From Octopus vulgaris (taxonomy: Eukaryota), in contig OX597814.1 in NCBI GenBank assembly GCA_951406725.2, forward strand, positions 21,948,001 through 22,012,000: a DNA stretch of 64,000 nt, given 5' to 3'. Positions 4,655 through 52,218 of the stretch are shown here, one piece after another (within the stretch, counting starts at the first letter, position 1; every line of letters begins with the position of its first letter). The translations under genes were made by a program, and so were the position numbers. The notes beneath the pieces were generated by a model. It saw nothing but the letters and a program-made list of their open reading frames with translations, had not been told where the DNA came from and did not search any database.

Positions 4655-5098
4655 CAATATGAGGACAGAGTAGAAGATTCAGAAAGAGTTGGATGAGTCA
4701 GCTGATGATTATGTAGGTACAGCAGCTCAGGAAACTCACTCTGATCAAACTCTTGAATTTGTTGGTGACATCCAGGCCATGATTGACAACAATCCTTCCA
4801 AGTCAATTAGGCTCATTGTTCAGGACATGAGAGTGTCTGAGTCTCTTATCAGGCAGATAGTGCTCTCTTTTACTCTCTTTTACTTGTTTCAGTCATGTGA
4901 CTGTAGCCATACTAGAGTACCGCCTTTTAGTCAAGCAAATCGACCCCAGGATTTATTCTTTGTAAGCCTAGTACTTATTCTATCGGTCTCTTTTGCCGAA
5001 CGGCTAAGTTACGGGGATGTAAACACACCAGCATCGGTTGTCAAGCAATGTTGGGGGGACAAACACAGACATACAAACATACACACACACATACACAC

Positions 5099-5147
<49 letters not shown>

Positions 5148-5600
5148 TACGACAGGCTTCTTTCAGTTTCTGTCTACCAAATCCACTCACAAGGCTTTGG
5201 TTGGCCCAAGGCTATATAGTAGAAGACACTTGCCCAAAGTGCCATGCAATGGGACTGAACTTGGAACCATGTGGTTGATAAGCAAGCTACTTATCACACT
5301 GCCACTCCTACACCTATGAAGTGCATAAAGACATTCGGTATTCCTCATACAAGATGAGAACAGATCAATTTTTGTCCCAAACCAAGGACAAAAGGAAATA
5401 GGATTTTGTCTGGCAAAAGGACTCTACACCATGCCACCCATGCAGGAAAGCACAGTAATGGCTGTCAGTCAATTTCTGTGACCCCATCACCCCTAAAATC
5501 TGGCCACCTAACTCCCCAGACTGCAACCTCCTTGATTATTATGTGTAGAACACAGTGTTAAAATGAAATGTCAGTGTTATTTTCATTTTTGCATAATTTA
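4655..5600 (+). mobile_element. Tc1/mariner-superfamily transposase remnant, split by a SINE
   Basis: IQAMIDNNPSKSIRLIVQDMRVSESLIRQIV (HTH-like) continues after the SINE as HKDIRYSSYKMR; WPPNSPDCNLLDYYV at ~5501-5546 is the Tc1/maT WP..SPD.NP motif. Confidence 0.75.
4864..5316 (-). mobile_element. SINE family A, full-length, nested in the Tc1/mariner remnant
   Basis: Reverse complement of family A with (GAGTAAAA)-type tail; short AGTGC duplicated at the junctions. Confidence 0.8.
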
Positions 5601-13520: not shown

Positions 13521-13770
13521 GGAGGCACGTGGCTTAGTGGTTAGGGTGTCAGCACCATGATCGTAAGATTGTGGTTTTGATGCCTGCACCAGGCAACGCG
13601 TTGTGTTCTTGAGCAAAACACTTAATTTCATGTTGCTCCAGTCCACTCAGTTGGGAAAAATGAATAACGCTGCAATGGATTGGCATACCATCCAGCTGGG
13701 GAACACATATGCCATAGAAACCAGGAAACCGGGCCCATGAGCCTGGTTAGGCTTTAAAAAAGTGCGCATT
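13521..13770 (+). mobile_element. tRNA-derived SINE, family D
   Basis: GGAGGCACGTGGCTTAGTGGTTAGGGTG head (A box) followed by TGTGTTCTTGAGCAAAACACTT central domain; related head at ~47070. Confidence 0.65.
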
Positions 13771-14171
13771 TATATATATATATATATACATATGTATGGA
13801 TGTATATATATGTATGTATATGTATGGATGTATATATATGTATGTATATATATGTATATATATATATGTATGTAAATATATGTATATATATATGTATGTA
13901 TGTATATATATGTATATATATATATGTATGTATATATGTGTATATATATATGTATGTATGTATATATATGTATATATATATGTATGTATGTATATATATG
14001 TATATATATATGTATATATATATGTATATATATATGTATATATATGTATATATATATGTATATATATGTATATATATGTATATATATATGTATATATATA
14101 TGTATATATATATATGTATATATATGTATATATTATTTTTATTTTATCGCAATTTGATTTGTTTATATATG

Positions 14172-14206
<35 letters not shown>

Positions 14207-14807
14207 GTATATGTATATGTATATATATATGTATATATATATGTATATATATATATATATGTATATGTATATGTATATATATATGTATATATATATGTAT
14301 ATATATATGTATATATATGTATATATATGTATATATATGTATGTATATATATATGTATGTATATATATATGTATGTATATATATATGTATATATATGTAT
14401 ATATATGTATATATATATGTATGTATATATATATGTATATATATGTATGTATATATATATGTATATATATGTATATATATATGTATATATATATGTGTAT
14501 ATATATATGTATGTATGTATATATATATGTATGTATATATATATGTATATATATATGTGTATATATATATGTATATATATATGTGTATATATATATGTGT
14601 ATATATATAAGTGTATATATATAAGTGTGTATATATATATGTGTATATATATATGTGTATATATATATGTGTATATATATATGTGTATATATATATGTGT
14701 ATATATATATGTATATATATATGTATATGTATATATGTATATATGTATATATGTATATGTGTATATGTATATGTGTATGTGTATATATATATATATATAT
14801 ATGTGTG

Positions 14808-14863
<56 letters not shown>

Positions 14864-14881
14864 CATATATATATATATATA
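13770..14881. repeat. ~1.1 kb complex (TA)n/(TATG)n microsatellite
   Basis: Seen directly; source of the Y/I/M-rich pseudo-ORFs. Confidence 0.97.
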
Positions 14882-48800: not shown

Positions 48801-48966
48801 GAGGTACATTTGAACATAGATCCATAAAAGGGAGCCTATCTATGATGGTTGAAAGCTGAACACACAGTGACAACAGATAACTGTACAATAAATCAAAATA
48901 AAATTATATATCTGAAATAATAATAGTAGGCGCAGGAGTGGCTGTGTGGTAAGTAGCTTGCTAACC

Positions 48967-50948
48967 TTCGTCTGAGTTAGACGTGTTATTTTGCTGCTCC
49001 GGATGCCACGTTGTTTCAACGTGAATTGTTGAACTTTCGACTCGACTGCAGGTAGGCGTTTTGTATTTTTGCGGGCGAAGTGAAGTTTTATTACTTGCAT
49101 TAATGTCTTTTAGCACTTAATATTTTTAGCAGATAATAAAGCTCCACTTTGCTCCGGATGTAATTTTTCTGCCTGTTGTCGAGTGTAAAGAGAATTGTAT
49201 TTTTAAAGCGGCGTAGTCCGTCTGCAAAAATTATTTTTGAAATTGTCGTTGTGTTATCCACGGGATTTACCAAGGATTATTTTACCAAGGTGTTTTACCA
49301 ACAGTGTATTTGGCCTGGAATACAATTTTTGGCCGAAAAAGTTAACAAAAAAAAAAGAAAAATTAATTCCTTTGTCTGAATTTGAACTCTCTTTCTCCGT
49401 CTATCATTCATTTGTAAAAAAAAAAAAAGAACTTTTTTTGAACTGCCATTTTAATTTTATTTCTTCCCTTCTGTTGCTTTTTTCATTCTCCTTTCTGTGT
49501 CTAATTTATTTTGTAACATTTTGAACTGTTTTTCTTACATTATGGCAAGGAATTTCACTGTGTGGGAATTGACACCTCCCAAAAAGTACTTAAAGGAGCT
49601 CGAGATCAAAACCGTGGTGTTGAGGACATATTCGAGGTCGCTCGACACCATAATGGTTTTCCCGAAAGCCACCATTATGAACGAGCTGGCAGACTATATG
49701 CCAGCCGTTAAACACATTCAACGGGGAGCCAAATACGCAATGATTTGGTTGCTGTTTGACTCCCCTAAAGCAGCTTGTGATTTCACGAGTAAGCCCATTG
49801 AGGGCGAAGAGATTCTGTTTCTCCCAAGCTATAAGGGGGAAAAATTGATACTATTATGGGTCTGCGGCCTGCCGCCCGGCTTTGAGCCCGAGTGGGTGGA
49901 AGATTCCATCCGCCGGGGTCTGAGTGGTGGTAGCGCCAAGATCCTGAACGTGAGAATGCAGCCTGCGGCTGACTGGGAAGGGGCAAAGGCTACTTTGACT
50001 CTGTGGACCCAGTCGGCCAAGAGTCTGGTTTTGCCGGACTTCTTGAAGATGGCCGGGTCCAAGTATCCGGTGATGCTTGAGGGACGCCCCCCCCCCCAAG
50101 TGTCACCTGTGTTCGGAGACCGGCCACATTAAGAAAAACTGCCCCAGGAACCAGAGTAGGATCCTGGAGAAGTTAATATCAGAGCCTCTCCCTGCCCCAC
50201 TAATGGAGGGAGAGAAACAAAGTGAGGAGGGGGAAAATCCTCCTCCAAAAGAAAAAGAAAAGTGGGGAGCAATGGCGACCCACCAAAGGAACCGGAGGCT
50301 GCGGAAGAAAAAGAGGAGGCACGCCACCAGCGGACTGTAACACCCAGACGGCGTCTCCCATGTGTCCTCCGGCGGTTGTGATGCCGGAGAAATTTTATGT
50401 AGTCCTCTTCCATAAAGGAGGCACTGTAGAAAACGAAATAGGTAAGATGAGGAAGAGAAACCAATGGGAGGGACTTCGGTCCTGCATGGAGTATCCCGAG
50501 TGGCCTTCGCAGCTGGCTGCGGAGGTCCTACTCGAAAATGATATGTGCAGGATCGAGAATTCTTTCCTGGAGGATCTCTTGCAAGTCATACCTGTATGCG
50601 GAAGCCTGACGATGGACGATTGTGTCGTTAAAGCAAGAGAGTTCATCGGTCGGGTAACGTAAAATTGTAATTGTGTTACATTGTGACAGAGGTTTATTGC
50701 CTCTGAAGAGACTTTTAAAAGTGTAAATTGTAAATTGAAATTTTTGTGAAAATTTTTGAATTTTTGTAATTTTTGAAATTTTGTAAATTATTGAAAAAAA
50801 AGAACATTGTTTTAGAGAAGCAAAAGTCGGCGGGCGCTTTCTGACTTCTCCCATCACCATCTTCATCAACCACCACCATCATCCATTAATGTCCTTGTCC
50901 AGCCTGTAGCTACTCTGTGTGCTGCCCTAGTGGCAAATTATTAAAATA
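48967..50948 (+). mobile_element. ORF1-only non-autonomous non-LTR retroelement (L1/Tx1-type ORF1; 'half-L1'-like)
   Basis: 16-bp TSD AAGTAGCTTGCTAACC (48951-48966, 50949-50964); ~575-bp 5' UTR, single coding region, ~290-bp 3' UTR, A-rich end; no EN/RT. Confidence 0.85.
49542..50662 (+). pseudogene. ORF1/gag-like protein (~372 aa if two homopolymer +1 shifts are corrected) with CCHC zinc knuckle CHLCSETGHIKKNC
   Basis: Three overlapping ORFs in successive frames, joinable at C11 (50087-50097) and at an A run near 50308; EGRPPPKCHLC context; GC-rich with CpGs retained. Confidence 0.8.
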
Positions 50949-52218
50949 AAGTAGCTTGCTAACCAACCACATGGTTCTGGGTTCAGTCCCACTGCGTGGC
51001 ATCTTGGGCAAGTGTCTTCTGCTATAGCCCCGGGTCGACCAATACCTTGTGAGTGGATTTGGTAGACAGAAACTGAAAGAAGCCTGTTGTATATATGTAT
51101 ATATATATATATGTGTGTATGTGTGTGTGTCTGTGTTTGTCCCCCTAGCATTGCTTGACAACCGATGCTGGTGTGTTTACGTCCCGTCACTTAGCGGTTT
51201 GGCAAAAGAGACTGATAGAATAAGTACTGGGCTTACAAAGAATAAGTCCCGGGGTCAATTTGCTCGACTAATGGCGGTGCTCCAGCATGGCCGCAGTCAA
51301 ATGACTGAAACAAGTAAAAGAGCAAAGAGAGTAAAATGTTTCCTATGCTATTGCTGTTTCCTACTTTTGCCTTAATTATAAACATAATATAAATGTAAAT
51401 TATGTTTGTATTATGAAGTCTGTTATGTTACATAATAGACTCCAAACCAACAGGGAAGTTTCTATGCAGTTACTAAATATGCTACAAAGAGTAGCTATAT
51501 CTCACCCACATTACATCCTACCATCTCTTAAGGAGGTAAAAACAGAGTAAATAAAGTGGTCCTGAAATTTTCATGTCTGAATAAAAGACAGACTGGATAC
51601 AGTTGGAATGTCTTTGGCTATAAGTCTGCTTGATCAAGGTTTACAGTATATTGTTGTTATTGTTTAGTTCCAGCTAAATTTACACTATTTTATTTTGCAA
51701 AAGAAATGTCGTCTTTATTATAATTTATTATAATATTTGTCACTCTCATCATCCATTCAAGCTGCCTACATGTGGTGGCTTAACCTGATCCAAGTTACCA
51801 TTAAATTTCCTTAAACAAGTATCCTACAAAAAGGAGACATGTTTTAGTCTTAAATCTTAGGATAGCATGCATCATCATAAGAATGGGGTATGTCACAGGG
51901 ATGTAAAGAAGCTAACACCAGTTAGACACACACACATACACACATCATTATCATCAATGTTTTGACAACCACATTTTTATGTTCTCACGCACACACGCAC
52001 AGTTTCCATCTACCAAATTCACTCTTGAAGCATTGGTCAATCTGAGGTTCTAGATGATGACACCTGCCCTAGTGCTAAGCCAAGCAGTGACAAATAGAAC
52101 TTTTTAAAGACACAGTCATGCTTGTACTTTTGTTCACAATAGTTAATGGTTAATGACCAAACCAGCTAAATAAATAAAAGAAACTGAATAAAATAGATAT
52201 TCCCACATTGCTACTAAC

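Follow-up and report, generated by a model that had tools for sequence, protein, structure and literature searches.

A multicopy ORF1-only retroelement, probably a non-autonomous LINE derivative, at a fixed site in the SINE heads of Octopus vulgaris

The insert in the window and its ORF1 protein

The window analyzed here is a stretch of 64,000 nucleotides of the Octopus vulgaris genome (assembly GCA_951406725.2, contig OX597814.1, positions 21,948,001 to 22,012,000 of the forward strand). An insert of 1,982 bp (48967-50948), flanked by two identical 16-mers, splits a short interspersed element (SINE) in this window (Table 1). The host SINE carries motifs that resemble the A and B boxes of tRNAs, and the insertion between them that had been proposed from the letters of the window (the sequence-only reading) was confirmed. 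No tRNA was detected in the window by ARAGORN, and an Rfam scan returned matches at chance level, with no ribozyme among them. Further copies of the same SINE are found in the window at 372, 4314, 4875-5316, 6528, 25246, 34051, 40217, 43095, 44222, and 56701, and a long tract rich in (TA)/(TG) microsatellites lies at 13770-14870.

The sequence-only reading had described one coding region of about 372 codons. The span itself and its zf-CCHC domain, which scores above the cut-off, were recovered, but the frame is not open in the window copy: when compared to five relatives, it is disrupted near 50087 (4 bases gained in a poly-C run), near 50233 (one base lost), and near 50317 (about 70 bases lost). 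Assembly errors are one option for the homopolymer changes. The coding region is 97-98% identical to the nearest three of the five compared copies, so that calling the insert young was fair. Both hairpins described in the 3' UTR are present, and of the A-rich end, an AATAAA remains at the 3' junction but no poly(A) tail. The two monomers proposed in the 5' UTR share only words of 10-11 bases (self-BLAST E 0.14-0.49) and were not retained. The 5' UTR is a likely candidate for an internal Pol II promoter. Contigs from four runs span the element with loose ends at 48927-48928, and such contigs cannot reveal transcription.

Table 1. Features of the insert and of its host SINE (positions in the window).
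Feature	Positions	Strand
Host SINE head, 5' part (tRNA-derived), with A-box-like motif at 48939-48949	48927..48950	+
Left 16-bp target repeat; about 9 first bases target-derived, last 6-7 probably borne by the element RNA	48951..48966	+
Element 5' UTR; differs between sister families	48967..49541	+
ORF1 coding span, disrupted in this copy (~50087, ~50233, ~50317)	49542..50662	+
CCHC zinc knuckle, PF00098, 21.8 bits (cut-off 20.8)	50101..50142	+
C-terminal domain of ~90 aa, predicted fold confident (pLDDT 81)	50390..50659	+
GC-rich motif/hairpin in the 3' UTR	50824..50847	+
Antisense target copy AGCTACT (complement of AGTAGCT)	50908..50914	+
Terminal 4-bp hairpin, common to the element and its autonomous partner, with compensatory changes	50923..50935	+
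AATAAA straddling the 3' junction, overlapping the first bases of the right repeat	50945..50950	+
Right target copy, target-derived	50949..50964	+
Remaining host SINE: B-box-like motif at 50980-50990, internal (TA)n/(TG)n tract, 3' tail; end approximate	50965..51333	+

In intact relatives, ORF1 encodes a protein of 393-402 aa with a predicted RRM-like alpha/beta region, a CCHC knuckle, a basic linker, and a C-terminal domain. For the full-length model (pLDDT 55), Foldseek returned nothing at E<=0.001. Ferredoxin-like folds, a common arrangement, match residues 97-185 with Z up to 8.7, and the N-terminal half is predicted to be alpha/beta with a ferredoxin/RRM-like fold in this segment. In the Atlas, ORF1 resembles CCHC and ZCCHC3-type proteins, and its closest named proteins come from Octopus and Argonauta. 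No Pfam domain beyond zf-CCHC was found in the element, and no L1 ORF1 Pfam family. The C-terminal domain of about 90 aa, which had been noted as unrecognised, has indeed no clear relative in structure or sequence comparisons: it gave no Foldseek or Atlas match, did not align with the C-terminus of the partner ORF1 described below, and reached at best a Z of 4.5, which does not establish a new fold.

An ORF1-only family and its autonomous partner

A DNA search of the 2.8-Gb genome with the coding region yielded 1,726 first-look candidates, which is not a copy number; 40 of them were scored and 30 fetched. Most of these 30 relatives align over the entire element (~2.05 kb) and stop at the same 3' endpoint, and seven retain open frames of 393-402 codons. 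The family is multicopy, with a unit of ~2.0-2.3 kb and a LINE ORF1 protein as its sole product. Many sister families, 1.9-2.3 kb long and with differing 5' UTRs, came to light when occupied sites were sampled.

The sequence-only reading had considered that other copies might continue into ORF2, or that the frame might come from a processed host gene. The frameshifts of the window copy and the ORF2 that follows one relative (L021) could indeed suggest a one-off deleted LINE or a host gene. However, no copy examined has an ORF2 of its own downstream; the ORF2 at L021 and L031 belongs to an unrelated LINE nested, with an overlap of ~22 bp, within the element, which resumes beyond it. The constant length and common 3' end at many loci, the homology of ORF1 to LINE ORF1s (27% over 195 aa, E 5e-19), and the age and diversity of families under purifying selection leave the one-off and host-gene readings a negligible probability, and the view of an ORF1-only family stood.

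The dN/dS ratio, a check suggested earlier, was 0.10-0.33 in 21 ORF1-only pairs. In a tree built from 42 of the 61 rows (the 19 without class or motif were left out, and only six were autonomous), the ORF1-only cores fell on one side of a long, fully supported branch, with the six autonomous rows on the other. These cores are 58-97% identical to each other and 23-30% identical to autonomous ORF1s. These results indicate that the ORF1-only families represent an old lineage whose ORF1 is under purifying selection. Its parent was not found among the sampled autonomous elements, since the partner ORF1s reach only the 23-30% identity given above.

Four copies (L024, L035, L093, and L010) are chimeric, their N-terminal half deriving from one family and their C-terminal domain or tail from a second, which suggests recombination or template switching between families. 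True tandem 5' units, two or three of ~200-220 bp, occur in 5 of the 30 relatives (L018, L025, L026, L028, and L029) and resemble the promoter monomers of rodent L1. The 5' ends of sister families start with short palindromic or promoter-like words (GCGCATGCG, TTCCGG, and GACGTG), and some families show serial 5' additions containing a second target-like CTTACC. A fixed Inr-DPE spacing across the 5' junction was considered and dropped, as the spacing differs among 5' types.

An ORF2 lies upstream in 6 of 30 junction loci. Full-length units of ~5.45-5.5 kb with the same target bounds were found at five loci (L071, L072, L096, L117, and L126), and five partner copies are mutually 96-99% identical. 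They encode an ORF1 with a CCHC knuckle (PF00098, 24.8 bits) and an ORF2 with an apurinic-type endonuclease, a reverse transcriptase (RT), and a C-terminal zf-RVT; none of the sampled copies has a fully open ORF2. The best solved relative of this ORF2 is human L1 ORF2p (E 3e-48). ORF1 proteins of the Tx1 clade carry a CCHC knuckle, and the partner shows the architecture of that clade, with endonuclease, RT, and C-terminal zinc domain in ORF2. This architecture and the targeting would place the partner in Tx1 rather than in L1; no named Tx1 reference was present among the 120 matches listed for its RT. The main partner subfamily accounts for 81 5' junctions at the site, its copies having been retrieved through the site itself.

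The ORF1-only element and the partner have almost no DNA similarity besides the tail that they share. At 59 occupied sites, 39 tails were of the ORF1-only type, 15 of the autonomous type, and 5 unclassed. Both types end with a 4-bp hairpin, then ...AAATA, then the target, without poly(A). In the alignment of the hairpin, 91% of cells were paired and 5 showed a two-sided change, a level reached in none of 500 shuffles; this count includes the rows of L126 (wrong coordinates) and L104 (shifted). The GC-rich hairpin of the 3' UTR was found in 22 of 40 ORF1-only tails versus 1 of 15 autonomous-type tails. The shared site and tail suggest that this ~5.45-kb LINE of the L1/Tx1 group is likely the mobiliser of the ORF1-only family. 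Two other LINEs were rejected as partners: that at L031 is nested inside an ORF1-only copy, and that at L033 adjoins an ORF1-only-type 5' end upstream and carries another tail.

Target site, left repeat, and antisense motif

Insertion occurs at a single position of the tRNA-derived SINE, between its A and B boxes. In the loci selected by coding region, the target 16-mer was found at the 3' end in 29 of 30 (at L021 after the nested LINE; at L028 the junction is lost) and at the 5' end in 29 of 30 (L023 not shown). All 30 loci chosen by the 3' UTR alone, an overlapping set that includes the window, also end at the target. Exact patterns counted 659 occupied versus 79,823 empty sites, dispersed, for the occupied ones, over many contigs. 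Elements also insert at the equivalent position of a second SINE subfamily (AAGAAG...TTCCC), with 124 occupied and 4,646 empty sites under a pattern of different strictness; the idea that this subfamily escapes targeting was accordingly rejected. The Tx1-like target preference raised by the sequence-only reading was thus borne out, as strict sequence specificity with an autonomous partner at the same site; more than 20% of copies in one flank type is the threshold for target preference given for Tx1 elements (PMC4494074), and the ORF1-only family exceeds it. The family extends sequence-specific LINE targeting to SINE heads, which offer ~80,000 harmless and renewable sites. By parting the two boxes, these elements may also act as brakes on the dominant SINE. 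In its main subtype the target reads GGTAAG...CTTACC, nearly a palindrome (48944-48966 in the window); both strands thus present CTT/ACC, and symmetric nicking could occur.

Copies occur alone or in head-to-tail arrays of mixed families. Passive amplification of a composite unit (SINE, element, SINE) instead of repeated insertion would fit the predominance of one SINE subtype among the youngest copies and the inheritance of the left repeat with the element. We consider it very improbable: within a single element family, the right copies are as varied as empty sites, the units of mixed-family arrays are separated by a single target copy with no SINE head between them, and 5'-truncated copies at the target site show independent insertion.

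The exact 16-bp direct repeat of the window is real, but its reading as a pure target duplication did not hold for the family. In one sister family, 50 of 60 5' junctions share a left-repeat variant of 15 bases, one shorter than the target, that occurs in none of the first 100 empty sites listed and in none of the first 100 listed 3' junctions. Right ends were examined for 40 of the 60 junctions. Of 30 loci bearing the variant, 28 had a findable right end and 25 ran into the SINE body, with the right copy equal to the left in 0 of 25; the 10 loci with other left copies comprised 3 true duplications, 4 differing pairs, and 3 without a right end in range. Left copies of the partner end in AACC in 77 of 81 cases versus 37 of the 100 empty sites listed, and are one base longer in 26 of 81 versus 0 of 100 (both counted by eye); L071 and L072 have AACC on the left and TACC on the right. 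In the subfamily of the window copy itself, 20 of 20 left copies end in TAACC and 6 of 20 are one base longer, and in another family the figure is 85 of 87. The heterogeneity of the left repeat is centred on positions 8-10.

A plain duplication, with each family preferring one target variant, would agree with the equality of left and right in the window copy and several young relatives and with the three true duplications among the 60 junctions, but it is contradicted in the families tested by the junction counts above, and we give it very little chance. These junctions indicate instead that the repeat is composite, with ~9 target bases followed by 6-7 left bases that follow the lineage of the element. 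The simplest explanation is that these bases travel with the element because transcription starts inside the left repeat. The perfect identity of the two repeats in the window reflects the subtype of the target. Joining at ~9 bases into the target is not uniform, given the true duplications and some truncated copies that keep 15-17 target bases. Across the genome, the junctions naturally document how the second strand is joined in a LINE of the endonuclease type, in which a look-alike duplication would be partly RNA-borne.

A motif complementary to the target, AGCT(A/T)C, lies ~41-48 bases before the junction in ORF1-only tails and ~80 bases before it in partner tails. It was scored in 59 AAGTAG-site and 60 AAGAAG-site loci, from which 6 were dropped for their shortness and 33 because no motif could be called (8 of 59 and 25 of 60, respectively). 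The variable base was A in 50 and T in 0 AAGTAG targets, and A in 7 and T in 23 AAGAAG targets (Fisher p 3e-14, loci being non-independent); autonomous tails had 14 A in AAGTAG targets and 2 T in AAGAAG targets. The ORF1 tree and the tail tree, from which rows without class or motif were likewise left out and the second of which was built without the diagnostic base, each require at least three switches of this base, and one additional switch occurred in the partner. In predicted read-through RNA, the mean probability of pairing between motif and target was 0.66-0.81 for the matching target and 0.06-0.28 for the other; the fold-back energy is unexceptional (window copy z 0.05; partner tails z -2.0 and -1.8). 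In the simplest reading, the motif would be a stem of the read-through transcript.

Alternatively, the motif may pair with the displaced target DNA strand during priming, so that specificity would be partly written in RNA and co-evolve with the SINE. This reading would account for a motif complementary to the target at the very base that separates the two SINE subfamilies, in both tail types and at differing spacings, and for its repeated switches; in addition, the partner motif extends as ...CTTCACC, near the complement of the upstream GGT, which read-through RNA would lack. On the other hand, 7 of the 30 scored AAGAAG-site insertions carry a non-matching motif (six from one subfamily), so that insertion can proceed without a match to the recipient, pairing inside the read-through RNA molecule accounts for the same covariation, and the age of elements is confounded with that of the SINEs. 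We therefore regard displaced-strand pairing as rather unlikely. The covarying motif provides a direct test of RNA-target pairing in the site choice of a LINE, which is relevant to retrotransposon-based gene insertion tools. The composite repeat, the arrays, the many sister families, and the antisense motif were all absent from the sequence-only reading. A further tail type at the same site (L121, L273, L274, L278, and L281) has the hairpin and lacks the antisense motif.

Proposed mechanism and related elements

We propose, with a probability of roughly 0.8, that the insert is a non-autonomous ORF1-only LINE derivative at a fixed SINE-head site, likely copied by target-primed reverse transcription using the endonuclease-RT of the partner. 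Both transcript ends are inferred from DNA alone. With a start inside the left target copy, as is likely, the RNA would carry the last 6-7 bases of that copy; the junction AATAAA would place the poly(A) site downstream, and the RNA would probably end in the target stretch. This stretch is predicted to fold onto the antisense motif and so to close off a 3' domain that contains the terminal hairpin and to which the partner ORF2p would bind, and the element's own ORF1p likely chaperones the RNA. After a nick by the partner endonuclease at GGT^AAG, priming would take place there with the RNA end that is identical to the target, which would leave 3' junctions exact to the base and free of a tail. 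The end of the cDNA would then join the upstream strand ~9 bases into the target and rebuild a target-like 16-mer; because this 16-mer can be struck again, arrays would arise. By parting the A and B boxes, the insertion would silence the SINE copy that is hit.

More tentatively, the octopus may harbour parasites in three tiers, with a LINE and, riding along with it, an old ORF1-only clade using a SINE as a self-renewing pad, and an RNA that reads the target by both ends and by a re-tuned antisense segment. This wider picture is possible, though we lean against it; if true, it would amount to a naturally occurring retrotransposon of the endonuclease type with partial RNA programming, adjusted in parallel lineages to a changing SINE.

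L1 elements have a poly(A) tail and insert at dispersed positions, whereas the octopus element has tail-less junctions at one site. With an ORF1p lacking endonuclease and RT, homology to LINE ORF1s together with selection, and a 3' end in common with an autonomous partner, the element corresponds to an ORF1-only non-autonomous LINE. Such elements include HAL1 (half-L1) from the mammalian L1 clade, HeT-A from Jockey, and Ag-Sponge from CR1 (PMC5753468, PMC5786205), which it resembles in its sole product ORF1p, its LINE-type 5' and 3' parts, and its probable dependence on an autonomous LINE. As described in these papers, none of the three comes from an L1/Tx1 LINE with sequence-specific insertion into a SINE, the affiliation proposed for the octopus element; it also differs from them by the lack of a poly(A) tail and the extra C-terminal domain. 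It is not a HAL1 proper, as its ORF1 is of the CCHC type without an L1 ORF1 Pfam family and its named close relatives are octopod.

The sequence-specific LINEs of the Tx1 clade, as described in the part of the source consulted (PMC4494074), include Xenopus Tx1 in Tx1D, Keno (U2), Kibi/Koshi, and crocodilian Tx1-Mar with its SINEU cargo. The octopus system shares with them a multicopy or mobile-element target, non-autonomous cargo with the same target, tandem insertions that sandwich one target copy, and truncated copies that prove independent insertion. It differs by a tRNA-derived SINE head as target and a protein-coding cargo, and the composite left repeat and covarying antisense motif are not among the features described there (PMC4494074). 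In other clades and at other targets (rDNA, telomere), transcripts of R1, R2, and SART1 have been proposed to carry adjacent target sequence, whose annealing to the cut site yields precise junctions, and Drosophila R1/R2 and silkworm SART1 show non-templated bases at 5' junctions (PMC2718515, PMC7265360); the octopus system parallels them in both respects. The target-like words of the SART1 3' UTR are described there as sense and priming internally, whereas the octopus motif is antisense and stays upstream of the junction. Dada DNA transposons, which target small RNA genes and have a transposase gene and DNA-transposon ends, are also distinct from the octopus element, with zf-CCHC as its only domain, no terminal inverted repeat, and 5' truncations.

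HeT-A and TART form arrays at telomeres. As in that system, the ORF1-only element outnumbers its RT-bearing partner (39 versus 15 tails at the 59 sites), forms head-to-tail arrays, and has a fixed target. HeT-A is reported as ORF1-only (PMC5786205). In contrast to that Jockey-clade, telomere-targeted system, the octopus element has no telomere role, an endonuclease-defined site in dispersed SINEs, and a partner that resembles L1 ORF2p. The octopus family thus combines known kinds, a HAL1/HeT-A-like cargo and Tx1-like targeting, and adds an ORF1-only lineage of the L1/Tx1 group; since selection has kept its protein across deep divergence, the question of why non-autonomous elements retain ORF1 becomes testable. 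Among the papers listed by full-text literature searches, none concerned a SINE-targeting LINE or ORF1-only family in cephalopods, and a prior deposition of this family, for instance in Repbase, is possible. The main text of two octopus transposable element papers does not contain "Tx1", and a mollusc SINE paper names it once in another context.

Several loci showed further arrangements. A dense array of ORF1-only copies at the SINE site (G000:C7:13476000-13505999, L031-L033) includes complete LINEs from other L1/Tx1-like families, either nested in the copies or adjacent to them; these LINEs have another tail, and their ORF1s share 25-30% identity with the ORF1-only protein. Three identical 5' junctions ~12.5 kb apart (G000:C23:13055955-13081080, L188-L190) likely reflect a segmental tandem repeat carrying the element. 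Finally, tail-only insertions of 50-160 bp, possibly the seeds of a non-coding family, were observed at L047, L062, L110, L113, L233, L235, L237, and L239, that at L047 being a 5' end fused to a tail.
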